DNA of 15,913 nucleotides, taken from a virus (lineage: Duplodnaviria; Heunggongvirae; Uroviricota; Caudoviricetes). The position numbers and the translations under genes were made by a program. Positions 1 to 15,913 of the stretch are shown here, in pieces; position 1 is the first letter of the stretch, and each line of letters begins with the position of its first letter. Under the pieces are notes generated by a model. That model was not told where the DNA came from and made no database searches. It saw only the letters and a list, made by a program, of their open reading frames with translations. Where the stretch lies: the IMG/VR virus record IMGVR_UViG_2909298281_000004; one strand, written 5' to 3'.

Positions 1-1053
1 TTACGGGGTAATGCCAACCGCTGCCGCCACTTTGTCGCCACTTGGCAGCGTTGCCAGAGGATTGAAACGGAGCGCCGTTTCCAGATGATCCGGTGCCAGA
101 TGAGCGTAACGCATAGTCATTTTTATATCGTGATGTCCGAGGATTTTTTGCAAAGCAAGGATATTTCCACCCGACATCATGAAATGCGCCGCAAACGTAT
201 GGCGCAGAACGTGTGTCAGTTGACCGCGAGGGAGCACGATTGACGTTTTTTCCATCACGGATAAAAATTGAAAATAGCAGTCTGTGAAGAAATTGAACCC
301 ATCAAGCGCCATGATCTCTTCATAAAGCTCTTTACTGATAGGGATGCTTCTGTTTTTCTTCCCCTTCGTTCTTACAAAGGTAATTCGGTATTTAGTCACC
401 TGTGATCGGGTAAGGTTTATTGCTTCTCGCCAGCGTGCGCCTGTGCTTAAGCATATCTTGACTACCAGTGCCAGAATTGGGTCCTGACGTTTGCAATCAG
501 CCAGCAGTTCAACAATCTGCTCATGGGTAAGCCATGCCATCTCTTTTTCTGCGATGGTGAATTTTCGCATGTTCTCCAGTGGGTTTGGATACGACCATTC
601 GCCCAGGCGGGATAGTTCGCTAAAAACACTACTTAGATAGCTTTGCTCCAGGTTAATGGTGACCGGGCTTGCTCCTTTCTTCCATTTCTCGCTGAAGTAG
701 ATCTCACCTGTCAGGCGTTTATCTCGATAGTGGGCAAACATTTTAGAGGTGAGATCGGTTGCAAGGGGATTGCCCAGAGCGTCAACCATCAACAGCAATT
801 TATCATAGACATGCTGCCCAGCGGTTAGAGATTTACCATGTAGTTTGAACCATAGCTCAACCACGTCTTTCAGTGTTCGACGATCCACTGATTCTCCCAG
901 CCAGGGCTTTGCTTCGGTTTCTTCCATCGTATGGCGCTCAAAAGCCAGAGCTTCGCCTTTGGTGGCGAATTGTTTACGCACACGACGCCCACTACGTCCG
1001 GCGGGGTAACATTCGCAAAGCCATTTTCCTGTGGTGAGTTTTCGTACTGCCAT
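1..1053 (-). CDS. int: Tyrosine integrase, P2/186 family
   Basis: ORF 1..1131(-) has the N-terminal and C-terminal pattern of 186/P2 integrases (MAVRKLTTGKW...KQFATKGEALAFE... and ...LTHVLRHTFAAHFMMSGGNILALQKILGHHDIKMTMRYAHLAP). I place the start at the internal ATG at 1051-1053 (MAVRK), which has a GGAGGG Shine-Dalgarno just upstream on the minus strand. The stop codon is at 1-3, so the gene is complete but attL is outside the window. Confidence 0.85.
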   Translation of the reverse strand: MAVRKLTTGKWLCECYPAGRSGRRVRKQFATKGEALAFERHTMEETEAKPWLGESVDRRTLKDVVELWFKLHGKSLTAGQHVYDKLLLMVDALGNPLATDLTSKMFAHYRDKRLTGEIYFSEKWKKGASPVTINLEQSYLSSVFSELSRLGEWSYPNPLENMRKFTIAEKEMAWLTHEQIVELLADCKRQDPILALVVKICLSTGARWREAINLTRSQVTKYRITFVRTKGKKNRSIPISKELYEEIMALDGFNFFTDCYFQFLSVMEKTSIVLPRGQLTHVLRHTFAAHFMMSGGNILALQKILGHHDIKMTMRYAHLAPDHLETALRFNPLATLPSGDKVAAAVGITP

Positions 1054-1446: not shown

Positions 1447-2016
1447 TTACCTAACGTACTTAATTGTTAAACTTATAATTTTCCCAATTATTTCAACATC
1501 TTCTATCTTGCACTCGAAGGCTCTGTTTCCACCTTCAACGAAGATTCTTCCACCGGGTAAACGAGTAATGTCGCGGATTGTTATTTCGCCATCAATACTT
1601 ATTACCCATTTACCGTCACGTATATCATCAAATTCTTTATCACAAATAAATTCAGAATTGTTATCTGTGATGACAAAAGGTTTTTTAAACGTAGAGGGTA
1701 GAAATCCCTTATCAAAAATATAAAAACCGTCTTCACGCAAGGCACCATCAGATAATACATATTTAGCAACTTCCATAGTATTTGTATTACCTGAAGTTTG
1801 CTTTGAACCATGTCCGGTTGTGAGCCAATTAAGCGAGGTGCCCGTTTCAAGGGCGCACTGGATTACCCATTCTGCTGGGAATGAGTCACGCATGTAGCGT
1901 GTGGCGAGTGTACTTTTAGAGATTCCTAAATGATCGCACAACGCCTGTCGAGTTTTGAATCCATAAGCTTCTACCATGCGCTCTATAGCGCCTCGTCCGC
2001 CTTTCTCCAAATTCAT
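1447..2016 (-). CDS. cI: Immunity repressor, 186 CI-like (about 189 aa)
   Basis: 191-aa ORF divergent from the early operon, similar in size to phage 186 CI and much longer than P2 C. The N-terminal region (ERMVEAYGFKTRQALCDHLGISKSTLATRYMRDSFPAEWVIQCALETGTSLNWL) looks like a helix-turn-helix repressor. The ORF track starts at GTG 2022; the ATG at 2014-2016 with an upstream GGAG is the more likely start. Confidence 0.75.
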   Translation of the reverse strand: MNLEKGGRGAIERMVEAYGFKTRQALCDHLGISKSTLATRYMRDSFPAEWVIQCALETGTSLNWLTTGHGSKQTSGNTNTMEVAKYVLSDGALREDGFYIFDKGFLPSTFKKPFVITDNNSEFICDKEFDDIRDGKWVISIDGEITIRDITRLPGGRIFVEGGNRAFECKIEDVEIIGKIISLTIKYVR

Positions 2017-2040
2017 GGTCACTCCAAGTGAACTTTTATC

Positions 2041-2395: not shown

Positions 2396-2905
2396 ATGTT
2401 TGATTACCAAGTTTCCAAACATCCACATTTTGATGAAGCCTGTCGTGCATTCGCATTGCGCCACAACCTAGTGCAACTGGCAGAACGTGCAGGCATGAAT
2501 GTGCAGATTCTGCGGAACAAGCTGAACCCAGCTCAACCTCATTTATTAACCGCACCAGAAATCTGGTTGCTTACCGATCTGACTGAAGATTCAACGCTGG
2601 TAGATGGCTTTCTGGCACAGATTCACTGCCTGCCATGTGTACCGATTAATGAGGTGGCAAAAGAGAAACTGCCGCATTACGTCATGAGTGCAACTGCAGA
2701 GATAGGGCGTGTCGCGGCAGGTGCGGTTTCTGGCGATGTAAAAACCAGTGCAGGCCGTCGTGATGCGATCAGCAGCATTAACTCTGTTACACGACTGATG
2801 GCGCTGGCTGCTGTTTCATTGCAGGCCCGTTTACAGGCTAATCCTGCGATGGCGAGTGCAGTTGATACCGTGACTGGCCTCGGTGCTTCATTCGGTTTGC
2901 TGTGA
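2396..2905 (+). CDS. cII: CII-like lysogeny-establishment activator (169 aa)
   Basis: Second gene of the early operon. Using the ATG at 2396 (AGAGG Shine-Dalgarno 8 nt upstream) gives 169 aa, the size I recall for 186 CII. Assignment is by position and size. Confidence 0.6.
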
Positions 2906-2912
2906 GGTGCTT

Positions 2913-3113
2913 ATGCTGACGAAAGAACCATCATTTGCATCGCTGCTGGTAAAACAAAGTCCGGCAATGCACTACGGTCACGGCTGGATCATGGGTGAGG
3001 ATGGTAAACGCTGGCATCCGTGCCGTTCACAAGATGAATTGCTGGCAGAACTATCTACGAAAAAACGGGGGAACAAATGGCTATTGAAGGCGCTGCGGCG
3101 ACTGTTCCATTAA
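2913..3113 (+). CDS. Small early protein, possibly Fil-like (about 66 aa)
   Basis: ORF 2883..3113; the likely start is the ATG at 2913 (MLTKEPSF...) preceded by GAGGTG. It sits where 186 carries fil, directly after cII. Function not established from sequence. Confidence 0.45.
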   Translation: MLTKEPSFASLLVKQSPAMHYGHGWIMGEDGKRWHPCRSQDELLAELSTKKRGNKWLLKALRRLFH

Positions 3114-3418
3114 GACCCGGTGAACGCCTGAATGGACTTAATCATATTGCGGAGTTAAGGGCGAAAGTTTTTGGTTTGAATATTGAGTCAGAGCTTGAGC
3201 GGTTTATTAAAGATATGCGTGATCCTCGGGATATCAATAATGAACAAAATAAACGGGCACTGGCTGCCATATTCTTTATGGCAAAAATTCCAGCTGAACG
3301 TCATAGCATCAGCATTAATGAGCTGACCACTGACGAAAAGCGGGAGTTGATTAAAGCAATGAATCATTTTCGTGCAGTGGTGAGCTTATTTCCCAGACGG
3401 CTAACCATGCCGAATTAA
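3077..3418 (+). CDS. Hypothetical early-region protein (113 aa), possibly Dhr-like
   Basis: ORF overlapping the end of the preceding gene as in a translationally coupled operon. No motif recognised; the position matches 186 dhr. Confidence 0.45.
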   Translation: MAIEGAAATVPLRPGERLNGLNHIAELRAKVFGLNIESELERFIKDMRDPRDINNEQNKRALAAIFFMAKIPAERHSISINELTTDEKRELIKAMNHFRAVVSLFPRRLTMPN

Positions 3419-3485
3419 CCAACTAATGAAATTAATGGCGTAAACCCGCCGGGCATCCCTTTATCTAAATTCAGGAGAATTGCTT

Positions 3486-3719
3486 ATGCGTAATATTGAA
3501 ACCCTCACGACCAAAACCGGACCGGATGATGCAGGTCTTAATCTTTTACTGACAGAGGCTCGTCTGGAAGAACGCCGGGCAAGGGCTGAAGCAATGGCTG
3601 CTCGCCTCGATAGCTTGGCGTGTCATATCACCTCCCGCCAGCTAAACCACGTCGAAGCGGCAGAACTGCTGCGTGTGACTGCTGAAGCAATCCAGAACGA
3701 AGCGCAGGAGATCCACTGA
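3486..3719 (+). CDS. Hypothetical small early protein (about 77 aa)
   Basis: ATG at 3486 with AGGAG at 3473-3477. The protein is charged and predicted helical (LEERRARAEAMAARL). Its stop overlaps the next start (ATGA at 3716-3719). Confidence 0.5.
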   Translation: MRNIETLTTKTGPDDAGLNLLLTEARLEERRARAEAMAARLDSLACHITSRQLNHVEAAELLRVTAEAIQNEAQEIH

Positions 3720-3946
3720 TGGCTGATGCAATGGATCTCGTACAGCAGCGCGTTGAAGAAGAACGCCAACGCCATATCCGTGCTGCCCGTGCCAAAACGC
3801 CGGGCGTGTCCCGCGTGCTTTGCGTTGAGTGTGAAGCGCCAATTCCGCCAGCACGCCGCCGTGCCATTCCGGGTGTGCAGCTTTGCATTACCTGTCAGGA
3901 AATCGCAGAGCTGAAAGGCAAACATTACAACGGAGGTGCTGTATGA
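3719..3946 (+). CDS. TraR/DksA-family C4 zinc-finger protein (75 aa)
   Basis: Contains CVEC-x17-CITC, a four-cysteine zinc finger in a small protein, typical of phage TraR-like proteins. AGGAG lies 8 nt upstream. Confidence 0.7.
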   Translation: MADAMDLVQQRVEEERQRHIRAARAKTPGVSRVLCVECEAPIPPARRRAIPGVQLCITCQEIAELKGKHYNGGAV

Positions 3947-4153
3947 GCACCATCCTGAAATGGGCAGGAAATAAAACCGCCATAATGTCCGAACTGAAAA
4001 AGCATCTTCCTGCTGGCCCGCGACTGGTTGAACCTTTCGCGGGTTCCTGTGCAGTGATGATGGAGACGGATTATCCCAGCTATCTTGTTGCGGATATTAA
4101 TCCTGATTTAATCAACCTCTATAAAAAGGTTGCTGCTGATTGTGAGGCGTTTA
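3943..4153 (+). pseudogene. Phage dam-like N6-adenine DNA methyltransferase, N-terminal about 70 codons, truncated by IS1
   Basis: ILKWAGNK...LVEPFAGSCAVMMETDYPSYLVADINPDLINLY aligns with the N-terminus of Dam-family methyltransferases (E. coli Dam: FLKWAGGK...LVEPFVGAGSVFLNTDF..ILADINSDLISLY). The reading frame runs into the IS1 left end and stops at 4156-4158. Confidence 0.75.
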
Positions 4154-4208
4154 GGTGATGCTGCCAACTTACTGATTTAGTGTATGATGGTGTTTTTGAG
4201 GTGCTCCA

Positions 4209-4484
4209 GTGGCTTCTGTTTCTATCAGCTGTCCCTCCTGTTCAGCTACTGACGGGGTGGTGCGTAACGGCAAAAGCACCGCCGGACATCAGCGCTATCT
4301 CTGCTCTCACTGCCGTAAAACATGGCAACTGCAGTTCACTTACACCGCTTCTCAACCCGGTACGCACCAGAAAATCATTGATATGGCCATGAATGGCGTT
4401 GGATGCCGGGCAACTGCCCGCATTATGGGCGTTGGCCTCAACACGATTTTACGTCACTTAAAAAACTCAGGCCGCAGTCGGTAA
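4209..4484 (+). CDS. insA: IS1 InsA
   Basis: 91-aa [46 protein letters not shown]... matches IS1 InsA as remembered. Confidence 0.9.
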
Positions 4485-4906
4485 CCTCGCGCATACAGCC
4501 GGGCAGTGACGTCATCGTCTGCGCAGAAATGGACGAACAGTGGGGATACGTCGGGGCTAAATCGCGCCAGCGCTGGCTGTTTTACGCGTATGACAGGCTC
4601 CGGAAGACGGTTGTTGCGCACGTATTCGGTGAACGCACTATGGCGACGCTGGTGCGTCTTATGAGCCTGCTGTCACCCTTTGACGTGGTGATATGGATGA
4701 CGGATGGCTGGCCGCTGTATGAATCCCGCCTGAAGGGAAAGCTGCACGTAATCAGCAAGCGATATACGCAGCGAATTGAGCGGCATAACCTGAATCTGAG
4801 GCAGCACCTGGCACGGCTGGGACGGAAGTCGCTGTCGTTCTCAAAATCGGTGGAGCTGCATGACAAAGTCATCGGGCATTATCTGAACATAAAACACTAT
4901 CAATAA
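4403..4906 (+). CDS. insB: IS1 InsB reading frame (expressed as InsAB' transposase by -1 frameshift)
   Basis: ORF with ...[18 protein letters not shown]...[12 protein letters not shown]..., characteristic of IS1 InsB. The A6C slippery run lies at 4460-4466 near the end of insA. Confidence 0.85.
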
Positions 4907-4921
4907 GTTGGAGTCATTACC

Positions 4922-5175
4922 AGCATGGCGCAGTCCACTTTTTTAGGAAAAGGGATGCTGAATGTAATTCTCATTGTTTGCGTCGATAATGTCGGCGTAA
5001 CCGCACCACGACCATATTGCAGGATTTTCCCGTTGGGTAATTTCATCCATCCATCACCACTGGCAAAAGAGGCCATGTCCGGTATCTGATTTTCCCCTGT
5101 CCCCACATCCCGTTTTGCCGCTTCTCCCAAACCAACGTTTAAGAAAATGCAGAGGTAACAGCTAACTGGCATCAT
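4922..5175 (-). pseudogene. Fragment of a tail-fibre variable segment (alternative C-terminal cassette), truncated by IS1
   Basis: The minus-strand ORF starts at 5175 and runs into the IS1 right end. It contains DGWMKLPNGKILQYG, which resembles the motif I recall at the start of variable C-terminal domains of Mu/P1/e14-type tail fibres. It is opposite in orientation and adjacent to the invertase, as S'v is to gin in Mu. Confidence 0.4.
5122..5147. other. Candidate Gin/Hin/Pin-type recombination crossover site (single copy)
   Basis: TTCTCCCAAACC-AA-CGTTTAAGAAAA is a 26-bp imperfect dyad resembling hixL (TTCTTGAAAACC AA GGTTTTTGATAA) and gix sites as recalled. It lies just inside the 5' end of the tail-fibre fragment, about 55 bp from pin. 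No partner site is present in the window. Confidence 0.35.
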
Positions 5176-5202
5176 CTCCGGTTTTTATTCAGGGGGATGA
5201 TC

Positions 5203-5769
5203 ATGCTTATTGGCTATGTACGCGTGTCAACAAATGACCAGAACACCGATTTGCAACGTAATGCACTGAACTGCGCGGGATGTGAGCGGATTTTTGAGGA
5301 CAAAATCAGTGGCACTAAGTCCGACAGACCGGGGCTGAAAAAACTACTCAGGACACTATCGGCAGGAGACACGCTGGTTGTCTGGAAGCTGGACAGGTTG
5401 GGGCGCAGTATGCGGCATCTTGTTACGCTGATAGAAGAGTTGCGCCAGCGTGGTGTGAATTTCAGAAGCCTGACTGACAGTATTGATACCAGTACCCCAA
5501 TGGGCCGTTTCTTTTTTCATGTCATGGGTGCCCTGGCTGAAATGGAACGCGAACTGATAGTTGAACGTACCAGGGCAGGGCTGGCTGCAGCTCGTGCCAA
5601 AGGCAGAGTAGGTGGACGCCGTCCTAAGTTGACCACCGAACAGTGGGCACAGATTGGGCGTTTACTCGAGGCCGGAGAATCAATACAGCGTATTGCACTG
5701 ATTTTTGATGTAGGCGTTTCTACCATTTATAGAAAATTTCCGGCAAATAAGATCAATGAATCCCCCTGA
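5203..5769 (+). CDS. pin: Serine DNA invertase, Gin/Pin/Hin/Cin family
   Basis: MLIGYVRVSTNDQNTDLQRNAL...LVVWKLDRLGRSMRHL...FRSLTDSIDTSTPMGRFFFHVMGALAEMERELI..., near-identical in pattern to Mu Gin with the catalytic Ser in YVRVSTNDQ. Start chosen at ATG 5203 (GGGGG 6 nt upstream) rather than the ORF-track ATG at 5197. Confidence 0.9.
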   Translation: MLIGYVRVSTNDQNTDLQRNALNCAGCERIFEDKISGTKSDRPGLKKLLRTLSAGDTLVVWKLDRLGRSMRHLVTLIEELRQRGVNFRSLTDSIDTSTPMGRFFFHVMGALAEMERELIVERTRAGLAAARAKGRVGGRRPKLTTEQWAQIGRLLEAGESIQRIALIFDVGVSTIYRKFPANKINESP

Positions 5770-5817
5770 ATCAGCATTATGTTGATTATCCCTGCAAGCA
5801 GACAAATACCGTTATTT

Positions 5818-5835
5818 TGTGTGAATAACGACACA
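5818..5835 (+). promoter_or_regulatory. Candidate Ogr-dependent late promoter element (TGT-N12-ACA) upstream of the tail operon
   Basis: TGT at 5818-5820 and ACA at 5833-5835 are separated by 12 nt, centred about 85 bp upstream of the FI ATG. This is the dyad that P2-type late promoters carry near -55. It sits within a larger palindrome CGTTATTttgtgtgAATAACG (5810-5830). Confidence 0.45.
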
Positions 5836-5911
5836 ACTGCGCTTAGCTGTTTGTCAGGCACAATCACTTCAACATAGGGCGAAGCCTAATCCAATCAGGA
5901 GGTTCGCCACT

Positions 5912-7084
5912 ATGGCTCAGGATTACCACCACGGGGTGCGCGTTGTTGAAGTCAACGAAGGCACCCGATCTATTACCACGGTGAGCACCGCCATCGTGGG
6001 TATGGTCTGCACGGGCGATGATGCCGATGCAAAAATGTTTCCTCTTAATAAACCCGTGCTGATCACTGATGTGCTGACTGCCAGCGGTAAAGCGGGTGAG
6101 TCAGGTACTCTGGCCCGTTCGCTGGATGCCATCGCTGACCAGGCAAAACCCGTGACCATTGTTGTGCGTGTGCCGCAGGGTGAAACGGAAGACGAAACCA
6201 CGACCAATATCATCGGCGCAGTGACTGCTGAAGGTAAAAAAACAGGTATGAAAGCCCTGTTATCTGCCCAGTCACAGCTCGGCGTTAAACCGCGCATTCT
6301 CGGCGTGCCAGGCCACGACACCAAGGCGGTAGCTACTGAGTTGCTGAGCGTGGCGCAAAGCCTGCGTGGATTTGCTTACCTGTCAGCGTATGGCTGCAAG
6401 ACAGTGCAGGAGGCGATCACTTACCGCGAAAACTTCAGCCAGCGCGAAGGGATGCTGATCTGGCCTGACTTTACTGGCTGGGACACGGTGCTGAATGCCG
6501 AAGCAACGGCATATGCCACCGCCCGTGCGCTTGGTCTGCGCGCCAAAATTGACGAGCAGACCGGATGGCACAAAAGCCTGTCCAACGTGGGCGTGAACGG
6601 TGTCACCGGAATTTCTGCAGATGTGTTCTGGGATCTGCAGGACCCGGCAACCGATGCAGGTCTGCTGAACCAGAACGACGTCACCACGCTTGTGCGTAAA
6701 GACGGTTTCCGCTTCTGGGGTTCCCGCTGCCTGAGTGATGACCCGCTCTTTGCCTTCGAAAACTACACCCGCACGGCGCAGGTGCTGATGGACACGATGG
6801 CAGAAGCACACATGTGGGCGGTGGATAAACCGCTTAACCCGTCGCTGGCCCGCGACATTATCGAAGGTATCCGCGCCAAAATGCGCAGCCTGGTCAGTCA
6901 GGGCTATCTCATTGGTGGTGATTGCTGGCTGGATGAGTCGGTGAACGACAAAGACACGCTGAAAGCCGGAAAACTCACCATCGACTACGACTACACGCCA
7001 GTGCCGCCACTTGAAAACCTGATGCTGCGTCAGCGCATCACCGATCAGTACCTGGTGAATTTCGCCAGCCAGGTCAGCGCGTAA
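5912..7084 (+). CDS. FI: Contractile tail sheath protein (P2 FI-like, 390 aa)
   Basis: [19 protein letters not shown]...[15 protein letters not shown]...[25 protein letters not shown]...[24 protein letters not shown] aligns along its length with P2 gpFI as remembered. CAGGAGG Shine-Dalgarno upstream. Confidence 0.92.
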
Positions 7085-7093
7085 GGGGACAAC

Positions 7094-7609
7094 ATGGCTT
7101 TACCACGCAAATTAAAACACCTGAACCTGTTTAACGACGGGAACAACTGGCAGGGGATCGTTGAGTCGCTGACGCTGCCGAAATTTACCCGCAAATATGA
7201 GAAGTATCGCGGCGGCGGAATGCCGGGTGCGGTGGATGTGGATCTGGGGCTTGATGACAGTGCGCTGGACACAGAATTTTCCATTGGTGGTACTGAATTG
7301 CTGCTGTTTAAACAGATGGGTAAAGCCACGGTGGATGGCATCCAGCTGCGCTTTACCGGCTCTATTCAGCGTGACGATACCGGGGAAGTGCAGGCCGTGG
7401 AGCTTGTCGTGCGTGGACGTCACAAAGAAGTGGATTCCGGCGAGTGGAAGACGGGCGAAAGCAACACCACCAAAGTGACCAGTACCAACAGCTACGCGAA
7501 GCTGACCATCAATGGTGAGGTGCTCTATGAAGTGGACCTTATCAACATGGTGGAAATTGTGGACGGTGTGGACCTGATGGAAGCGCACCGCAACGCCCTC
7601 GGCCTCTGA
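7094..7609 (+). CDS. FII: Tail tube protein (P2 FII-like, 171 aa)
   Basis: Immediately downstream of the sheath gene with the size and position of P2 gpFII; begins MALPRKLKHLNLFNDG. Confidence 0.88.
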   Translation: MALPRKLKHLNLFNDGNNWQGIVESLTLPKFTRKYEKYRGGGMPGAVDVDLGLDDSALDTEFSIGGTELLLFKQMGKATVDGIQLRFTGSIQRDDTGEVQAVELVVRGRHKEVDSGEWKTGESNTTKVTSTNSYAKLTINGEVLYEVDLINMVEIVDGVDLMEAHRNALGL

Positions 7610-7663
7610 TATATCTGAACGGCGCGGGATACCGCGCCAGAACCCAATTGACAGGACAGCAAA

Positions 7664-7966
7664 ATGAGCGATAAGCAGACTGAAAAGACCATTCAACTGG
7701 ATACCCCCATCAAGCGCGGTAAAACAGAAATCACCGAAATTGTGCTGCGTAAACCGCAGTCCGGTGCGCTGCGCGGTACACGCCTGCAGGCCATTATGGA
7801 TATGGATGTGAACGCGATGATGACCGTGATCCCCCGCATCTCCAGTCCGGCACTGACTGCACAGGAAATTGCAGAGATGGACCCGGCAGATCTCACTGCC
7901 ATGTCGGTTGAGGTTGTCACTTTTTTGTTGAAGAAGTCGGTGCTTGCCGGTTTACCGACAGCCTGA
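7664..7966 (+). CDS. E: Tail assembly chaperone E (P2 gpE-like)
   Basis: Small ORF between tube and tape-measure genes. It contains the slippery heptamer T_TTT_TTG at 7921-7927 and stops at 7964-7966. Confidence 0.85.
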   Translation: MSDKQTEKTIQLDTPIKRGKTEITEIVLRKPQSGALRGTRLQAIMDMDVNAMMTVIPRISSPALTAQEIAEMDPADLTAMSVEVVTFLLKKSVLAGLPTA

Positions 7967-8100
7967 CGGTTGACGATCTGGTGGCAGATATCGCCACCAT
8001 TTTTCACTGGCCGCCATCCGTTACTGACGTTATGCCGCTGACCGAAGTGCTGGAATGGCGGTATAAAGCGATTCAGAGAAGCGGGGCCAACGATGAGTGA
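7664..8100 (+). CDS. E+E' tail assembly chaperone made by programmed -1 frameshift
   Basis: After a -1 slip at 7921-7927 the frame stays open to TGA at 8098-8100, overlapping the T start at 8093. This matches the conserved gpE/gpE+E' arrangement of P2-like phages. Predicted from sequence, not shown experimentally. Confidence 0.7.
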
Positions 8101-11100
8101 TAACAACCTGCGTCTGCGGGTCATTCTTAATGCGGTTGACAAGCTCACCCGCCCATTTCGATCTGCGCAGGCCAGTTCAAGAGAACTGGCTGCTGCTGTC
8201 AAAAAATCCCGCGATGCAATAAAGCAGCTTGATCAGGCCGGGAGCAGTCTGGACAGCTTCCGAAAGCTGCAGGCAGAAAATCAGAAATTAGGCGACAGGC
8301 TGAACTATGCCCGCCAGCGTGCAAATTTGCTCAGTCAGGAACTGGGAGCGATGGGGCCGCCTTCGCAACGTCAGGTTGTTGCTCTGGGCCGTCAACGGCT
8401 GGCTGTTCAGCGCCTGGAAGAACGCCAGAAAAAGCTGCAGCAGCAGACGGCGCTTGTGCGTGCTGAACTGTACCGGGCGGGAATTTCTGCGAAAGACGAT
8501 GCGGGAGCAACTGCCCGTTTAGCCCGTGAAACATCACGTTATAACCAGGAACTTTCGAAACAGGAGGCGCGGCTGAAGCGACTGGGGGAAGCTCAGCGCA
8601 GGATGAATGCAGCGCGTGCCAGTTATGCCCGTTCGCTGGAGGTGCGTGATCGTATTGCAGGTGCCGGAGCCACCACCACGGCTGCAGGGCTGGCAATGGG
8701 TGCGCCAGTGATGGCGGCAGTAAAAAGCTATACCAGCATGGAAGATGCCATGAAAGGTGTGGCAAAGCAGGTCAATGGTCTGCGTGACGATAATGGCAAC
8801 CGCACTGCACGTTTTTATGAAATGCAGGATGCCATCAAGGCTGCCAGCGAACAGTTGCCGATGGAAAACGGTGCGGTGGACTTCGCTGCACTGGTTGAAG
8901 GTGGTGCGCGCATGAACGTCGCAAACCCTGACGACAGCTGGGAAGATCAGAAACGTGACCTGCTGGCCTTCGCCAGTACGGCAGCAAAGGCGGCAACAGC
9001 CTTTGAGCTGCCAGCGGATGAACTGTCAGAAAGTCTGGGGAAAATCGCCCAGCTCTACAAAATCCCCACCCGCAATATTGAACAGCTCGGTGATGCGCTG
9101 AACTATCTGGATGATAACGCCATGTCGAAAGGGGCAGACATCATTGATGTGATGCAACGTCTGGGCGGTGTGGCTGACCGTCTGGATTATCGTAAAGCGG
9201 CGGCGCTGGGTTCCACCTTCCTGACACTGGGCGCTGCGCCAGAGGTTGCAGCCAGTGCAGCAAACGCGATGGTGCGTGAATTGTCCATTGCCACCATGCA
9301 AAGCAAGAGTTTCTTTGAAGGGATGAATCTGCTGAAACTCAATCCTGAAGTGATTGAAAAGCAGATGACGAAGGATGCGATGGGAACCATCCAGCGCGTG
9401 CTGGAGAAGGTAAACGCGCTGCCGCAGGACAAGCGCCTGTCTGCCATGACTATGTTGTTTGGTAAAGAGTTTGGCGATGACGCGGCGAAACTGGCAAACA
9501 ACCTGCCGGAACTGCAGCGTCAGTTAAAACTGACAGCGGGCAATGATGCGCTCGGCTCCATGCAGAAAGAATCCGACATCAACAAAGACTCACTTTCTGC
9601 TCAGTGGTTGCTGGTCAAAACCGGAGCGCAGAACACCTTCAGCAGCCTGGGCGAAACGCTGCGCCAGCCGCTGATGGATATTCTGTACACGGTGAAAAGC
9701 GTCACGGGGGCGTTGCGTCGCTGGGTGGAAGCTAACCCGGAACTGACAGGCACACTGATGAAAGCATCGGCTGTTGTGGCTGCGGTTACCGTCGGCCTCG
9801 GCACCTTAGCGGTGGCGCTGGCTGCAGTGCTGGGGCCGCTGGCAGTGATCCGTCTGGGATTCTCTGTGTTGGGTATCAAAACGTTATCTTCCGTTACGGC
9901 AGCAGTAACTCGAACCAGCAGCGCGTTGTCCTGGCTGGCTGGCGCACCACTGGCACTGCTGCGACGCGGGCTTGCTTCATCGGGCAACGCCGCAGGTTTA
10001 CTTACTGCGCCGTTGTCGTCTTTGCGCCGCACGGCATCACTGACGGGAAATGTCCTGAAAACTGTAGCAGGTGCGCCGGTTGCACTTTTGCGGTCTGGAT
10101 TATCCGGTTTACGTGCTGTTGCTGTGATGTTTATGAATCCTCTGGCGGTACTGCGCGGTGGACTGGCCGCCGCAGGCACGGTGCTGCGAGTACTGGCATC
10201 TGGTCCACTGGCGATGCTGCGCGTTGCCCTGTATGCCATATCTGGTCTGTTAGGTGCTCTGCTCAGTCCGATAGGTCTTGTGGTTACTGCACTGGCGGGC
10301 GTGGCGCTGGTTGTCTGGAAATACTGGCAACCCATCACCGCATTTCTCGGTGGCGTGGTGGAAGGATTCAAAGCGGCGGCAGGTCCCATCAGTGCAGCGT
10401 TCGAACCGCTTAAGCCCGTGTTCCAGTGGATTGGCGACAAAGTGCAGGCGCTGTGGGGCTGGTTTACTGATCTGCTGACGCCCGTTAAGTCGACCTCTGC
10501 CGAACTGCAGAGCGCAGCGGCAATGGGGCGGCGATTCGGGGAGGCACTGGCGGAAGGGCTGAATATGGTCATGCATCCGCTGGACTCCCTGAAATCCGGC
10601 GTTTCCTGGTTGCTGGAGAAGCTCGGCATTGTCAGTAAAGAGGCCGCAAAGGCAAAACTGCCGGAAAGCGTGACGCGTCAGCAACCTGCGACGGTGAATG
10701 CAGACGGTAAAGTGATGATGCCATCGGGTGGTTTTCCATCATGGGGATATGGCTTTGCGGGGATGTATGACAGCGGCGGGTATATCCCGCGCGGGCAGTT
10801 TGGCATCGTCGGTGAAAACGGGCCGGAAATTGTTAACGGCCCGGCAAATGTGACCAGCCGGAGAAATACAGCTGCACTGGCTGCCGTTGTTGCCGGAATG
10901 ATGGGCGTTGCTGCCGCGCCAGCAGAGCTTCCACCGTTGCACCCTTTGGCACTTCCCGCGAAAGGTGGAGAAGCAATTGTGAGTCGCGCAGCCACTGTGC
11001 CGCTCGTTCAACGGATTGAGGCACCGACGCAGATCATCATTCAGACGCAGCCAGGACAAAGTGCGCAGGATATTGCGCGGGAGGTGGCACGCCAGCTTGA

Positions 11101-11170
11101 TGAACGTGAACGCAGGCTGAAGGCAAAAGCCAGGAGTAACTACAGCGATCAGGGGGGATACGACGCATGA
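8093..11170 (+). CDS. T: Tail tape measure protein (P2 gpT-like, 1025 aa)
   Basis: Very long ORF after E/E' with an N-terminal coiled-coil-like region, a hydrophobic Ala/Leu-rich repeat region and a C-terminal domain; its position is conserved in P2. Confidence 0.9.
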   Translation: MSDNNLRLRVILNAVDKLTRPFRSAQASSRELAAAVKKSRDAIKQLDQAGSSLDSFRKLQAENQKLGDRLNYARQRANLLSQELGAMGPPSQRQVVALGRQRLAVQRLEERQKKLQQQTALVRAELYRAGISAKDDAGATARLARETSRYNQELSKQEARLKRLGEAQRRMNAARASYARSLEVRDRIAGAGATTTAAGLAMGAPVMAAVKSYTSMEDAMKGVAKQVNGLRDDNGNRTARFYEMQDAIKAASEQLPMENGAVDFAALVEGGARMNVANPDDSWEDQKRDLLAFASTAAKAATAFELPADELSESLGKIAQLYKIPTRNIEQLGDALNYLDDNAMSKGADIIDVMQRLGGVADRLDYRKAAALGSTFLTLGAAPEVAASAANAMVRELSIATMQSKSFFEGMNLLKLNPEVIEKQMTKDAMGTIQRVLEKVNALPQDKRLSAMTMLFGKEFGDDAAKLANNLPELQRQLKLTAGNDALGSMQKESDINKDSLSAQWLLVKTGAQNTFSSLGETLRQPLMDILYTVKSVTGALRRWVEANPELTGTLMKASAVVAAVTVGLGTLAVALAAVLGPLAVIRLGFSVLGIKTLSSVTAAVTRTSSALSWLAGAPLALLRRGLASSGNAAGLLTAPLSSLRRTASLTGNVLKTVAGAPVALLRSGLSGLRAVAVMFMNPLAVLRGGLAAAGTVLRVLASGPLAMLRVALYAISGLLGALLSPIGLVVTALAGVALVVWKYWQPITAFLGGVVEGFKAAAGPISAAFEPLKPVFQWIGDKVQALWGWFTDLLTPVKSTSAELQSAAAMGRRFGEALAEGLNMVMHPLDSLKSGVSWLLEKLGIVSKEAAKAKLPESVTRQQPATVNADGKVMMPSGGFPSWGYGFAGMYDSGGYIPRGQFGIVGENGPEIVNGPANVTSRRNTAALAAVVAGMMGVAAAPAELPPLHPLALPAKGGEAIVSRAATVPLVQRIEAPTQIIIQTQPGQSAQDIAREVARQLDERERRLKAKARSNYSDQGGYDA
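9932..10262 (+). repeat. Degenerate tandem peptide repeats inside the tape-measure gene (about five copies of PLAxLRxGL)
   Basis: The translation shows APLALLRRGLAS / APLSSLRRTASL / APVALLRSGLSG / NPLAVLRGGLAA / GPLAMLRVALYA in series. Coordinates are approximate. Confidence 0.5.
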
Positions 11171-11652
11171 TGATGGTGCTGGGATTGTACGTGTTTATGC
11201 TGCGCACCGTTCCGTATCAGGAACTGCAGTATCAACGCAGCTGGCGACATGCGGCAAACAGTCGGGTAAACCGACGTCCGTCCACGCAGTTTCTGGGACC
11301 GGAAAACGACATGCTGACGCTTTCCGGTGTTCTTATGCCGGAAATAACAGGCGGCAGGCTGTCGTTGCTGGCACTGGAGCAGATGGCAGAACAGGGGAAA
11401 GCATGGCCCCTGATTGAAGGCAGCGGCACGATTTACGGCATGTATGTGATTGAGGGACTGAATCAGACTAAAACGGAGTTTTTCCGCGATGGTATGCCGC
11501 GCCGGATTGAGTTCACCCTGTCGCTCAAACGGGTGGATGAATCCCTGTCCGATATGTTCGGTGATCTCAGTGCGCAGCTGAATAATTTGCAGGATACGAC
11601 AACGTCTGCCTTAAGCGATATCAGTAAAACGGTGGGAGGGCTGCTGTCGTGA
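11167..11652 (+). CDS. U: Tail protein U (P2 gpU-like, 161 aa)
   Basis: ATGA overlap with the T stop; size and position match P2 gpU. Confidence 0.85.
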   Translation: MMMVLGLYVFMLRTVPYQELQYQRSWRHAANSRVNRRPSTQFLGPENDMLTLSGVLMPEITGGRLSLLALEQMAEQGKAWPLIEGSGTIYGMYVIEGLNQTKTEFFRDGMPRRIEFTLSLKRVDESLSDMFGDLSAQLNNLQDTTTSALSDISKTVGGLLS

Positions 11653-12749
11653 ATTTCAGCTCTGAACTGCTTAACAAAGGCAACAAAACTCCGGCATTCA
11701 GCATCAGTATTGAGGGTAAGGATATCACCACTGTGCTGGATAACCGCCTGATGAGTCTGACGCTGACGGACAATCGGGGCTTTGAAGCGGACCAGCTTGA
11801 TCTGGAGCTGGACGACGCCGACGGAAAAATCGTGCTGCCGCGCCGTGGTGCGGTCATTACGCTGGCGTTGGGCTGGAAGGGGCAGTCGCTTTTCCCGAAA
11901 GGAGCATTCACGGTGGACGAGATTGAACACACTGGCGCACCGGACCGCCTGACTATCCGGGCGCGAAGTGCTGATTTTTGTGAAACCCTGAATATCCGCC
12001 GTGAAAAATCGTGGCACAAGACCACCGTTGGGGAAGTGGTGAAGGAAATAGCTGTGCGGCACAAACTGAAGATGGCATTGGGTGAAGACCTGTCGGATAA
12101 ACCTGTGGAGCATATAGACCAGACCAATGAGAGTGACGGCAGTTTTCTGATGCGGCTGGCGCGCCAGTACGGTGCTATTGCGTCGGTGAAAAATGGCAAT
12201 CTGTTATTCATCCGGCAGGGACAGGGTAAAAGCGCCAGCGGTAAACCACTACCGGTTATCACTATCACACGTAAGGACGGCGACAGTCACCGCTTTACCC
12301 TGGCAGATCGCGGAGCCTACACGGGCGTAATTGCCAGCTGGTTGCATACCCGCGAACCCGCGAAGAAAGAAAGCACCACGGTGAAGCGTAAGCGCAGGAC
12401 TAAGAAGCAGAAGAAAGAGCCGGAAGCGAAGCAGGGCGATTACCTGGTGGGTACAGATGAAAACGTGCTGGTACTTAATCGCACCTATGCCAACCGGAGC
12501 AACGCCGAACGGGCGGCGAAAATGCAGTGGGAACGCCTGCAACGTGGCGTTGCGTCATTCTCGCTACAACTGGCAGAAGGTCGGGCGGATCTCTACACGG
12601 AAATGCCAGTGAAAGTCAGAGGCTTTAAACAGCCGATAGATGATGCGGAATGGACTATTACCACCCTGACGCATACTGTCAATCCGGATAACGGTTTTAC
12701 GACCAGTCTGGAGCTTGAAGTGAAGATTAATGATTTCGAAATGGAATGA
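11649..12749 (+). CDS. D: Tail protein D (P2 gpD-like, 366 aa)
   Basis: GTG start overlapping the U stop, with GGGAGGG upstream. It is the last late gene before ogr, as in P2. Confidence 0.85.
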   Translation: MNFSSELLNKGNKTPAFSISIEGKDITTVLDNRLMSLTLTDNRGFEADQLDLELDDADGKIVLPRRGAVITLALGWKGQSLFPKGAFTVDEIEHTGAPDRLTIRARSADFCETLNIRREKSWHKTTVGEVVKEIAVRHKLKMALGEDLSDKPVEHIDQTNESDGSFLMRLARQYGAIASVKNGNLLFIRQGQGKSASGKPLPVITITRKDGDSHRFTLADRGAYTGVIASWLHTREPAKKESTTVKRKRRTKKQKKEPEAKQGDYLVGTDENVLVLNRTYANRSNAERAAKMQWERLQRGVASFSLQLAEGRADLYTEMPVKVRGFKQPIDDAEWTITTLTHTVNPDNGFTTSLELEVKINDFEME

Positions 12750-12839
12750 TTCTTCGTAATAGAGAACTTTTAAGTTTTCAAAATGGAATAATGCGGTATC
12801 ATTATTGTGAATTTAGCAAAAATGGGGAGAACTCGAAAA

Positions 12840-13058
12840 ATGATGATTTGCCCACTGTGTGGAAGTGCCGCCCATACTCGCAGCAGTTTTCAGGTATCTT
12901 CATTGACCAAAGAGCGTTACAACCAGTGCCAGAACATTAACTGCAGCCATACTTTTGTTACCCATGAAACTTTTGTTCGTTCGATTGCAACGCCAAAAGA
13001 GTCAAATCCGGTTCAGCCGCATTCAATGAAATCAGGACAGGTGGCGCTCTCTCTTTGA
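12840..13058 (+). CDS. ogr: Ogr/Delta-type zinc-finger late-gene transcriptional activator
   Basis: MMICPLCGSAAHTRSS...KERYNQCQNINCSHTF matches the P2 Ogr pattern (CPLC...KERYHQCQNVNC). The ORF track extends to GTG 12807; I prefer the ATG at 12840 by analogy with P2 Ogr, which begins MFHCPLC. Confidence 0.8.
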   Translation: MMICPLCGSAAHTRSSFQVSSLTKERYNQCQNINCSHTFVTHETFVRSIATPKESNPVQPHSMKSGQVALSL

Positions 13059-13138
13059 CTCTGCCGCCAATTTGTCGCCATCGTTAAAAAACAGTGCTTC
13101 TAACATCATGATTTTAAACGGCATAAATTTCAGGCAAC

Positions 13139-13181
13139 AAAAAACCCATCAACCTTGAACCGAAATGGCGGGGTTGATGGG
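13139..13181 (-). terminator. Candidate Rho-independent terminator downstream of ybjL (minus strand)
   Basis: CCCATCAACC (13145-13154) pairs with GGTTGATGGG (13172-13181), and the plus-strand A-run at 13139-13144 gives a T-run 3' of the stem on the minus strand. It lies about 110 nt past the ybjL stop. The loop is long (17 nt), which weakens the call. Confidence 0.4.
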
Positions 13182-13293
13182 CTCCACAAAATGGGGACAT
13201 CAAAGAAAAGCAGTGGCACTAATTAAGACTGATGCCCTGCGGAAAAGTTCTGCGGTTGTGCAAAAAAATTTCATTTTCAGGGCAACTTCAGTT

Positions 13294-14979
13294 TTATCCT
13301 AATCCTGGCCATACCATGACGATGATTGTCCCTGCCAGCGTCAGCAGGACGTTGGCGATTGCGTAGGTGCCCGCGTAGCCCAGCGCAGGGATGTTACTGC
13401 GAGCTGTATCACTGATGATCTCCATTGCCGGCGCGCAGGTGCGTGCGCCCATCATTGCGCCGAACAACAGTGCGCGGTTCATTCGCAATACATAAGCACC
13501 GAACAAGAAACAGATAACCACGGGCACAAGACTGACAATTAATCCGGCAATCAACATCTGACCGCCAATCGCGCCCAGGCCGTTATTAATACCGCTACCG
13601 GCGCTCAGACCAACGCCTGCCATAAACACCATCAAGCCGAACTCTTTCACCATGCTTAATGCACCTTGCGGAATGTAACCGAAGGTCGGGTGGTTAGCAC
13701 GCATAAAGCCCAGCATAATTCCGGCGAATAACAACCCGGCAGCGTTCCCCATGCCGAAACTGAATGTGCTGAACTGGAAGGTGATCATCCCGATCATCAG
13801 CCCAATAACAAAGAAGGCGCAAAATGCCAGCAGGTCAGTGACCTGGCTGTGAATCGAGATAAAGCCGATGCGATCGGCGATGGTTTTTACGCGACGGGCA
13901 TCACCGCTGACTTGTAAAACGTCACCTTTGTTAAGCACGACGTTGTCATCTATCGGCATCTCAATCTGGCTACGAATGACGCGGTTAAGGAAGCAACCGT
14001 GATCGGTCAACTTCAGTTGTGCGAGACGTTTACCTACAGCGTTATGGTTTTTAACGACCACTTCTTCAGTGACGATACGCATGTCGAGAAGGTCACGATC
14101 GAAAACTTCTTTACCGTTACGGAAGCTGGGATCGAGTCGGGCATGGGCGTCGGGATAGCCTACCAACGCTATTTCATCGCCCATTTGTAGCACGGCATCA
14201 CCGTCTGGATTTGCCAGAATCCCGTTACGTCGAATACGTTCAATGTAGCAGCCGGTTTGTCGATAAATACCCAGTTCACGCAGATTTTTGCCGTCGGTCC
14301 AGGCCACCAGCTCCGGGCCGACGCGATAGGCGCGGATCACCGGTAAATAAACCTTACGGTTGGCATCAGTGTCCAGGCCACGTTCGCGGGCGATTTGCTG
14401 GGCGCTGGTCTGTAAGTCCTGATGCTGCAATTTCGGCAAGTAACGCGCACCAACAATCAAACTCACCAGACCGATTAAATAGGTTAAGGCATACCCGAGG
14501 CTCAGATTATCCAGTGCCAGTGAGAGCTGCCTGCTTTCCATGCCGGAATGACGCAGTGTATCGCCAGCACCGACCAGAACCGGTGTCGACGTCATAGAGC
14601 CTGCTAACATACCGGCCGTCAGGCCAATATCCCAGCCAAACAGCTTACCTAACCCTAAGGCGATCACCAGCGCACTGCCAACCATCACCAGTGCTAACAT
14701 TAGGTAATTTTTCCCATCGCGAAAAAAAATGGAAAAAAAGTTCGGTCCGGCTTCGACCCCGACGCAGAAAATAAACAGCATAAAGCCAAGATTAAGCGCA
14801 TCGGTGTTAATGCTGAAATGTTGTTGGCCTAATAACAGCGATACGACTAAAACGCCAATGGAATTACCCAGTTGGATCGAACCAAGTCGTAACTTTCCGA
14901 GACATAGCCCAAGCGCGAGGACCACAAATAATAACAGAATGTAATTCCCATTTAACAATTCGGCGACGTTTATATTCAC
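13294..14979 (-). CDS. ybjL: Putative transport protein YbjL (YidE/YbjL family, 561 aa)
   Basis: The 561-aa polytopic membrane protein [51 protein letters not shown]... matches E. coli YbjL as remembered. Confidence 0.9.
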
Positions 14980-15248
14980 GGAGGCTAACTTCTTGTTTAC
15001 TAGTAAGCTGTTGAAAGAAATGGTAATTTACGATAATGTTTTTTACCAGAATTCAGGGCGCAGATTCATTCAGCGCACCTAAACGATAGTAAAGTAACAA
15101 TATATTTTACTAGTGTAATCACATTAGGTATCAACGGCTATATGAATTGCGTTGGCCTATATTAGCATGGAATGCGAAGCGGCTTTATCTTACTGAACGC
15201 CACACTGGCGAAAAATGTGTTCGATAGACGCAGTGTCAGGAGGAACGA

Positions 15249-15626
15249 GTGAAACATAAACAACGTTGGGCGGGGGCAATCTGCTGTTTTGTCCTCTTCA
15301 TTGTGGTGTGCCTTTTTCTGGCGACGCACATGAAAGGCGCTTTTCGGGCTGCCGGGCATCCTGAAATCGGCTTGCTATTTTTCATTCTTCCTGGAGCAGT
15401 CGCCAGCTTCTTTTCACAGCGTAGAGAAGTCCTGAAACCTCTGTTTGGCGCAATGCTGGCGGCACCCTGTTCGATGCTCATTATGCGGCTGTTTTTTTCA
15501 CCGACGCGCTCATTCTGGCAAGAGCTGGCATGGTTACTAAGCGCGGTGTTCTGGTGTGCGCTGGGGGCACTGTGTTTCTTATTTATCAGTAGTTTGTTTA
15601 AACCACAGCACAGAAAAAATCAGTAA
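15249..15626 (+). CDS. ybjM: Inner membrane protein YbjM (125 aa)
   Basis: GTG start with AGGAGG 5 nt upstream; hydrophobic 125-aa protein at the position of ybjM between ybjL and grxA. Confidence 0.8.
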   Translation: MKHKQRWAGAICCFVLFIVVCLFLATHMKGAFRAAGHPEIGLLFFILPGAVASFFSQRREVLKPLFGAMLAAPCSMLIMRLFFSPTRSFWQELAWLLSAVFWCALGALCFLFISSLFKPQHRKNQ

Positions 15627-15646
15627 AGCCCTCAACGCGAGGGCTT
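15626..15646 (-). terminator. Candidate terminator hairpin between convergent ybjM and grxA
   Basis: AAGCCCTC-aacgc-GAGGGCTT stem-loop; on the minus strand it is followed by TACTGATTTTTT, so it may terminate grxA. Confidence 0.3.
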
Positions 15647-15655
15647 GTCAGACGA

Positions 15656-15913
15656 TCAGGCGTCCAGATTTTCTTTCACCCATGCAGCAAAATCGGTATA
15701 GCCGCCGATATGTTGCTGATCGACAAAAATCTGCGGCACGGTTTCTACGGGTTTACCTGCCTTTTGTTGTAGATCTTCTTTAGTGATCCCTTCCGCACGA
15801 ATATCTACATACTGATACTGAAAATCATCGCGTTCATTGCTCAATTTCTCAGCCAGATCTTTTGCACGCACACAGTAAGGGCAACCCGAACGACCAAAAA
15901 TAACGGTTTGCAT
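15656..15913 (-). CDS. grxA: Glutaredoxin 1
   Basis: 85-aa MQTVIFGRSGCPYCVRAKDLAEKL... with the CPYC active site matches E. coli GrxA. The start codon is the last three bases of the window, so the promoter is outside it. Confidence 0.92.
   Translation of the reverse strand: MQTVIFGRSGCPYCVRAKDLAEKLSNERDDFQYQYVDIRAEGITKEDLQQKAGKPVETVPQIFVDQQHIGGYTDFAAWVKENLDA

Follow-up and report, generated by a model that had tools for sequence, protein, structure and literature searches.

A truncated prophage at rybB

The window is a stretch of 15,913 nucleotides (IMG/VR record IMGVR_UViG_2909298281_000004) and represents a segment of the E. coli chromosome, with positions 2840-15913 being 100% identical to GCA_002741275.1 CP024252.1. 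It opens at the end of a phage integrase gene, int, and extends through to ybjL, ybjM and grxA. Within it lies what remains of a prophage of the 186/P2 family (Peduoviridae), inserted at rybB between rcdA and ybjL. The attachment-site gene, which encodes the RybB sRNA, is full-length (13136-13214, minus strand; Rfam RF00110, 105 bits) and marks the right prophage end. The left end of the remnant carries int (1-1053, minus strand) and the gene for a 186-type CI repressor (1447-2022, minus strand), followed by the early genes apl/cox, cII, fil, those for DUF5347 and DUF2732 proteins and a DksA-like gene. A dam gene, of which the first ~210 bp (about 3943-4153) are left, is cut at 4153 by an IS1 element (4154-4921, plus strand), beyond which are a C-terminal fragment of a tail-fibre gene (4922-5175, minus strand) and a Gin/Cin/Pin-type DNA invertase gene (5197-5769, plus strand) with its stop at 5769. 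The invertase is now an orphan, with one Gin/Cin-type crossover site left (5122-5147) and the partner site, present in prophage genome 500465-1, falling in the deleted part. A 12-nt perfect inverted repeat that brackets the invertase reading frame is absent from relatives and is probably due to chance.

The extent of the loss can be read from strain RM10809-3, whose rybB site holds a nearly full-length prophage on which the two IS1 junctions, in dam on the left and in the tail-fibre gene on the right, align ~22 kb apart. That prophage additionally has the rest of dam, replication gene A, a DinI/Tum-like gene, DarT/DarG, and the portal, terminase, scaffold and capsid genes, as well as lysis genes, R, S, V, W, J, I and fibres. 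On this comparison, a recent IS1-associated deletion of ~22 kb took the replication, head, lysis, baseplate and fibre genes. The initial annotation described a prophage that cannot make particles, and the gene content bears this out, as no replication, portal, terminase, capsid, lysis, baseplate or fibre gene is found between int/CI and ogr. Judged by the gene set that is missing relative to RM10809-3, the remnant is therefore unable to replicate, package, lyse or build a baseplate. Database matches appeared to offer further IS1-truncated remnants of this kind; the one inspected was a false join to an IS1 located elsewhere, and the tail region of TL012 proved to be full.

A complete tail operon remains downstream of the invertase gene, all on the plus strand. 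FI (5912-7084) encodes a tail sheath protein with Pfam sheath domains, 389/390 residues of which are identical to the 500465-1 protein, and FII (7094-7609) encodes the tail tube. E (7664-7966) contains the slippery site TTTTTTG (7921-7927) that leads into the E' frame (7981-8100), so that the E+E' frameshift product spans 7664-8100. The tape measure gene T (8093-11170, 1025 aa), the tail gene U (11167-11652) and the baseplate hub or late control gene D (11649-12749) follow. The sheath-tube-tape-measure-U-D operon named in the initial annotation is thus present as described, with no internal stops in FI, FII, E, T, U or D. The six proteins are 97-100% identical to those of 500465-1, with D matching at 354/366 and U at 159/161 residues and FI, FII, E and T each differing by at most one residue. 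These products (sheath, tube, chaperones, tape measure, U and D) cannot build a tail by themselves because V, W, J, I, H, G, X, R and S are absent, and with them the baseplate wedge, spike, fibres and tail completion proteins.

A putative activator dyad upstream of the sheath gene

The 142 bp at 5770-5911 form the exact intergenic region from the invertase stop (5769) to the FI start (5912). Work by Christie, Calendar, Egan and co-workers on P2, 186 and P4 established that late genes of P2-like phages are switched on by the zinc-finger activators Ogr, B and delta. Their binding site is TGT-N12-ACA at about -55, their target in RNA polymerase is the alpha subunit, and they cross-activate one another's promoters. 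This consensus for the Ogr/B/delta late promoters of the P2/186 family is stated in PMC3931495. The dyad that had been noted here, TGT-N12-ACA at 5818-5835, is a perfect match (TGTGTGAATAACGACACA, centre 5826.5), and its symmetry reaches further than the core, to TTGTGT-N8-ACACAA (extended TTGT-N12-ACAA) at 5817-5836. We designate this sequence, TTGTGTGAATAACGACACAA (plus strand), a putative Ogr/B-type activator binding dyad, its position being that of the annotated activator sites of P2 PF and 186 pJ.

The motif by itself carries little information. TGT-N12-ACA is not enriched in the window (6 observed vs 4.4 expected), and the extended form TTGT-N12-ACAA, found once against 0.41 expected, occurred at least once in 69 of 200 shuffles of the window and is thus also at chance level. 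The identification of a late promoter therefore rests on position and comparison with relatives, and not on the motif count.

For this comparison, the sequences upstream of FI were collected from 80 IMG/VR loci encoding FI relatives, together with the window, P2, 186 and Fels-2 (n=84). A TGT-N12-(A/C)CA dyad was centred 78.5-85.5 bp upstream of the FI ATG in 84/84, and was a perfect TGT-N12-ACA in 82/84, the exceptions being P2 and 186. The dyad centre lies 85.5 bp before the sheath-gene ATG in the window, 82.5 bp in P2 P_F, 81.5 bp in both 186 pJ and Fels-2, and 83.5 bp in 4LV2017 and in MLG42, and these six upstream sequences are otherwise not alignable with each other. The expectation that the dyad would sit where a P2 late promoter has its activator site was therefore well founded.

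Anchoring the sequences on the dyad brought out a second constant feature. The distance from the dyad centre to the end of a -10-like hexamer, (G/C/T)A(A/C)CAT, is 48.5 bp in all distinct sequences but that of P2, which has 49.5 bp; the corresponding hexamers are GACAAT in 186 and GAACAT in Fels-2 (48.5 bp each), and GAAAAT in P2 (49.5 bp). In the window the hexamer is CAACAT (5870-5875, plus strand), which ends 48.5 bp from the dyad centre, agrees with the -10 consensus at 3/6 positions and has no -35 consensus. A scan with the sigma-70 consensus called no plus-strand promoter in 5100-6100, and no plus-strand terminator was called between the invertase gene and FI (5769-5912). Since P2 and 186 have their annotated starts 7-9 nt past the -10 (records NC_001895 and NC_001317), the transcription start in the window is predicted at 5882-5884 (plus strand) by position homology, which would put the dyad at about -56 (centre at -55.5 to -57.5). 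The curated P2 record NC_001895 places the P_F activator site at 17555-17583, the start at 17626-17628 and FI at 17652, and in the curated 186 record NC_001317 the B site, the pJ start and the sheath gene are arranged likewise.

Matching dyads are also present at two other late promoters of the full-length RM10809-3 prophage, PO/PP (TTTGTGTGGTTGTCGGTACAAA) and PV (TTTGTATCAGCACTGATACAAG). The PV dyad has its centre 55.5 bp before the ATG of V, a gene whose start site in the P2 record is the first base of its coding sequence. The 142-bp intergenic region itself is widespread, being found at 90-100% identity in 828/5426 complete E. coli genomes, and the RM10809-3 prophage and 500465-1 match the window exactly over the 150 bp before FI. 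In relatives with a different upstream gene, homology starts a short way before the dyad, with TGT and ACA conserved.

We considered whether the dyad might be something other than an activator site, namely a chance palindrome, a terminator of the invertase gene or a CRP site. The chance-level motif count in the window would fit the first of these. For the second, a 7-bp stem, CGTTATT/AATAACG, overlaps the dyad; this stem is A+T-rich and has no T-run, and none was called as a terminator on the plus strand, so we rejected it. For the third, TGTGA-N6-ACACA at 5820-5835 agrees with 9/10 positions of the CRP consensus half-sites; however, the common allele TGTGAATAACGGTACA is a poorer CRP match that still keeps TGT-N12-ACA, and CRP sites of class I are not normally centred near -55.5. 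All three readings also have to contend with a dyad position and -10 spacing that are constant in 84/84 relatives of otherwise different sequence, and we consider it extremely improbable that any of them is correct.

Because the dyad position and the -10 spacing are shared by relatives that otherwise differ in sequence, the region 5770-5911 is, with high confidence, an ordinary P_F-type late promoter of a 186/P2-family prophage, which appears intact and competent on paper and whose retention seems to be incidental. The distance of 48.5 bp from the dyad centre to the end of the -10 further offers a comparative rule for locating P_F in any peduovirus.

A potential leader hairpin at the FI start

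The -10 hexamer overlaps the beginning of a potential leader hairpin (5873-5914, plus strand), in which CATAGGGCGAA (5873-5883) pairs with TTCGCCACTATG (5903-5914). The hairpin encloses both the Shine-Dalgarno sequence AGGAGG (5897-5902) and the FI ATG. Its 5' arm lies upstream of the predicted transcription start, which falls at the end of the arm, and late mRNA would therefore lose the stem. The RNA from -45 to +8 around the FI ATG, representing a read-through form, folds at -19.6 kcal/mol (z = -3.9), compared with -8.7 and -6.1 kcal/mol for RNAs starting at -30 and -26, respectively.

The same hairpin geometry, built from different sequences, is found in P2 and 186, where the mapped starts lie inside the 5' arm, in Fels-2 and in other leader families. 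When only the 13 nt upstream of the start were permuted, the effect was significant (p < 0.05) in 23/35 distinct leaders, with p = 0.008 for the window-type leader, 0.004 for P2, 0.010 for 186 and 0.002 for the L075-type. Several 4LV2017-type leaders showed little permutation effect, and when the 41 P2 genes are ranked by absolute stability, the FI site comes no higher than 10th. Part of the complementarity also comes free, as the CAT of the -10 pairs with the ATG.

These observations suggest a speculative role, which we regard as unlikely on balance, for the FI leader as a translational insulator whose geometry, but not its sequence, is conserved among P2-family phages. The 13-nt stretch that begins with the -10 and stops just short of the transcription start is complementary to the Shine-Dalgarno/ATG region, and an RNA reading through from IS1 or from the invertase gene, which has no terminator, would bury the FI ribosome-binding site in a hairpin. 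Ogr-initiated mRNA would begin inside or after the 5' arm and hence be open. We put forward this translational masking of read-through transcripts as a hypothesis; if true, transcription alone would not suffice for translation of the tail genes, which would also depend on initiation by way of the activator.

The activator gene and its candidate promoter

The late activator gene ogr (ogr/B-type; 12840-13058, plus strand) lies downstream of D and encodes a 72-aa protein with the cysteine pattern CX2CX22CX4C. The protein matches Pfam Ogr_Delta (PF04606) at 78 bits, well above the cut-off of 26.3, over residues 4-49. All four zinc-finger cysteines that the initial annotation ascribed to it are present (C4, C7, C30 and C35). 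The annotation had also called the gene intact, which stands for the full reading frame, the domain and the cysteines, and needs to be qualified at residue 62, where serine replaces a proline conserved in the family. Proline occupies this position in 14/14 other family members, including P2 Ogr and 186 B (~50% identity), and the C-terminal family motif P60-H61-P62...G66-Q67 is broken in the window protein by S62. The protein corresponds to a rare variant, WP_075034102.1, found on 9 contigs. One other genome with S62, L097, still has tail-fibre genes upstream, and P62S is therefore older than the deletion. Judging from the conservation of P62, full activity of the S62 protein is not guaranteed.

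A candidate sigma-70 promoter for ogr, TTTTCA-16-TATCAT, is located at 12775-12802 (plus strand), and its -10 is identical to that of 186 pB. Two dyads overlap the -35 and the -10 of this promoter. No terminator was called between ogr and rybB, and late or ogr transcripts may run antisense into rybB.

An intact promoter in front of the tail operon could belong to a dead circuit, if Ogr were silent, repressed by CI as at 186 pB with the Tum-like gene deleted, or were impaired by P62S. In this case the operon would never be expressed from within, and at most would be switched on by a foreign activator. In 186, pB is covered by two CI sites, which the two dyads over the -35 and -10 of the candidate ogr promoter bring to mind, and 12761-12779 matches the pR region (2027-2045) at 14/19 positions. 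The DinI/Tum-like gene of the full-length relative lies within the deleted segment, so that a CI-repressed ogr would leave the circuit locked off from within, given that this gene is the putative antirepressor. The conservation of P62 in the family points in the same direction. On the other hand, Klebsiella phage 4LV2017 has the same ogr upstream region beside a repressor gene of a different size, and E. coli strains that share the same CI differ from one another in the right arm of the first dyad, such that the assignment of CI operators at the ogr promoter is not supported by the comparison. Similarly, the S62 protein is also found where tail-fibre genes remain upstream, and residue 62 falls outside the Pfam zinc-finger domain (4-49). 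A circuit that is dead for either reason is a serious possibility, which we nevertheless consider somewhat unlikely.

Retained or not yet lost

Intact genes in a defective prophage could mean that the host has kept them because they are useful. With such a domesticated ogr-P_F-tail cassette, an infecting P2-like phage or P4-like satellite might have its late genes boosted or mis-timed by the resident Ogr; alternatively, the invader's activator might turn on the resident sheath, tube and tape-measure proteins, which would then poison the invader's tail assembly. The whole cassette is indeed intact, and T-U-D-ogr is kept by all remnants seen at the rybB site, in several strains. The cryptic ogr genes of E. 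coli K-12 and B are reportedly functional when cloned and capable of trans-complementation. However, the remnant shares 99.5-99.8% identity with full-length prophages found at this site, namely 99.5% with the RM10809-3 prophage over the aligned part and 99.8% with full-length prophages over 5074-15913. With so little time since the full-length state, intact reading frames say nothing about selection.

A sister genome is more informative still. In L101 (GCA_001911845.1, contig LGNB01000086.1), the same IS1 right end is joined to window position 5840, 4 bp downstream of the dyad, and a single mismatch to the window occurs in the 10,074 bp that follow (99.99%). This further IS1 deletion removed the fibre fragment, the invertase gene and the dyad, and left the -10, the tail operon and the S62 ogr in place. 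The loss of the dyad in so close a relative makes its retention in the window look incidental. L101 and the window-type genome thus constitute a natural, near-identical pair without and with the activator site.

Other strains differ in how much of the right end remains, as would be the case with random deletions. At the rybB site of G3/10 the early region is joined to the tape-measure gene, and FI, FII, E and P_F are missing, whereas 50EVAW has IS903B, gtr genes and an IS1 at this site. From these structures, decay at rybB appears to have been independent between strains, which is the pattern of random internal deletions and not of a conserved domesticated module. In addition, sheath, tube and tape measure form no tail by themselves. 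Domestication is thus very unlikely in our view. The promoter and ogr were probably retained incidentally, with no sign in the sequences compared of selection for the module; they would be present simply because a recent IS1-associated deletion happened to end upstream of the invertase gene.

Expected function of the remnant late circuit

In the arrangement that we propose, which is extrapolated from P2 and 186, the 72-aa zinc-finger activator would bind the TGT-N12-ACA dyad ~56 bp upstream of the start and recruit or activate sigma-70 RNA polymerase via the C-terminal domain of the alpha subunit, at a promoter with a weak -10 (CAACAT) and without a -35. Transcription would then proceed from near 5882-5884 across FI-FII-E/E'-T-U-D and probably on into ogr. 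P_F could answer to its own Ogr, or to the Ogr, B or delta protein of an incoming P2-like phage or P4-like satellite. In P2, late transcription normally also requires phage DNA replication, a requirement that is bypassed by P4 delta or by overproduced Ogr. Phage DNA replication genes are absent from the remnant. By analogy, sufficient amounts of the remnant's own Ogr should activate P_F, and so should the activator brought in by a helper or satellite.

The initial annotation had proposed that the remnant could still express the tail operon, or that its Ogr could trans-activate the late genes of an incoming phage, and by the same analogy both appear plausible. Trans-activation by a remnant ogr is a reasonable expectation, but it is not new in kind given what is reported for K-12 and B. 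What can be said is that an E. coli lineage carries a sequence-competent late-gene switch, consisting of activator gene, promoter and tail operon, in a prophage that is no longer capable of replication, packaging or lysis. When P2-like phages and P4-like satellites arrive, remnants of this kind can provide them with an activator or with material for recombination; beyond annotation, the significance is small.

Comparison with P2, 186 and other remnants

Both the kind of element and the kind of remnant are already known. The closest parallels are with P2 P_F/Ogr, which shares the distance from dyad to ATG (82.5 vs 85.5 bp in the window) and from dyad to -10 (49.5 vs 48.5 bp), the lack of a -35, the gene order FI-FII-E/E'-T-U-D-ogr and a 72-aa CX2CX22CX4C activator. 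Unlike the window, P2 has TGT-N12-CCA as its own site, where the window dyad is perfect and extended, and fun(Z) lies upstream of its promoter in place of an invertase gene. There is no alignable sequence beyond the motifs, Ogr is only 50% identical, and the immunity region of the window is 186-type and not P2-type.

In 186, the dyad-to--10 spacing at pJ is identical to that of the window (48.5 bp) and the activator B is a homologue with 53% identity. The CI/Apl/CII/Fil early region of the window is likewise 186-type, and the -10 of its candidate ogr promoter, TATCAT, is that of pB. In contrast, CI is only 32% identical to 186 CI, and while terminator t45 lies just upstream of pJ in 186, the invertase gene of the window enters the promoter without a terminator.

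Among defective prophages, K-12 (ogr-D' at cyaR), the cryptic ogr of E. coli B and the 'Rybb*' prophages of strains W, B and Crooks are likewise members of the P2 family that have kept a right end with ogr (PMC3032704 Table 2). The 'Rybb*' elements are listed there as defective P2-type prophages at the 'rybB ncRNA' and so share the attachment gene of the window, whereas the K-12 'ogr-D'' remnant occupies another site. The K-12 remnant also differs in keeping only ogr and part of D, without P_F or the tail operon; the window remnant has kept the whole F operon and its promoter, plus the early end from int to CI.

A sister genome lacks the upstream part of the FI promoter

An IS1 element (4154-4921) stands where about 22 kb of the prophage has been deleted internally, from within dam (junction at 4153) to within an invertible tail-fibre segment (junction at 4922). 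No co-linear match to the whole window was found among the complete RefSeq E. coli genomes in the collection, and only two of these cover at least 80% of it, both with about 5.5 kb of extra DNA. In the sister genome L101 (GCA_001911845.1, LGNB01000086.1), comparison of positions 1-460 with window positions 4551-4921 and 5840 onward placed the same IS1 directly against position 5840, with a single mismatch in the 10,074 bp that follow. A further deletion beside the IS1 has taken out the fibre fragment together with the invertase gene and the dyad (TGT-N12-ACA, 5818-5835) putatively bound by the late activator Ogr, and left the -10-like hexamer (5870-5875), the tail operon, and ogr (12840-13058) in place. 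L101 is a natural deletion mutant of the upstream part of the promoter of FI, the tail sheath gene.

The window's allele of the dyad doubles, at 5820-5835, as TGTGA-N6-ACACA, which agrees with the CRP half-site consensus at 9 of 10 positions; the commoner allele (…CGGTACA) is a poorer match.

The intact Gin/Cin/Pin-type invertase gene (5197-5769) retains beside it a single 26-bp crossover site, TTCTCCCAAACCAACGTTTAAGAAAA (5122-5147). Because the partner site belongs to the deleted part, the inversion switch is dead. The open reading frame is also flanked by a perfect 12-nt inverted repeat, ATTCAGGGGGAT (5187-5198) and ATCCCCCTGAAT (5760-5771), which could pair the Shine-Dalgarno (SD) sequence of the invertase gene with its 3′ end. 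This repeat has decayed in the relatives 50EVAW and TL012, and is thus probably due to chance.

A predicted hairpin in FI leaders

The SD/ATG of FI can pair with the stretch that runs from the -10 as far as the transcription start, forming a hairpin at 5873-5914 with a predicted energy of -19.6 kcal/mol. Similar hairpins are predicted in P2 (17622-17660), in 186 (about 2154-2192), and in comparison loci L005, L024, L075, L084, and L093. In most leader families z ranged from -2.4 to -4, and 23 of 35 distinct FI leaders reached p < 0.05 in a permutation test. Since the mapped or predicted start falls within the 5′ arm or downstream of it, the hairpin would mask only read-through RNAs entering from upstream of the promoter.

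Related prophages have decayed independently

Three relatives, 50EVAW, G3/10, and RM10809-3, are all located in the same rcdA-ybjL attachment site and have decayed independently. The first, which is almost complete, has frameshifts in its portal and fibre genes and encodes a DarT/DarG pair; another carries IS903B, gtr O-antigen modification genes, and one IS1; and in another the early genes are joined to the tape-measure gene. The int-CI and T-U-D-ogr ends are retained in all three.

The ogr end and comparison with 186

Codon 62 of ogr encodes S, where 14 of 14 other family members have P, within a conserved C-terminal P-H-P...G-Q motif beyond the Pfam domain. Only nine contigs were seen to encode exactly this protein (WP_075034102.1), which is also present in L097, a genome with tail-fibre genes upstream. 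A full-length gene for the RybB sRNA (13136-13214, minus strand) lies 78 bp downstream of ogr, which places the prophage in the rybB attachment site. On the plus strand between ogr and rybB no terminator was called, and thus ogr or late transcripts may extend antisense into rybB.

Between FII, the tail tube gene, and E is a G+C-rich hairpin without a T-run, GGCGCGGGATACCGCGCC (7621-7638), at a place matching that of the partial terminator tI in 186. Two dyads at 12762-12806 overlie the candidate ogr promoter: one, GAGAACT-N4-AGTTTTC, covers the -35 and the other, AATAATG-N6-CATTATT, the -10. As a phage with a different repressor gene has this region too, these are at most candidate CI sites; their arrangement resembles that of 186 pB, which has two CI sites.
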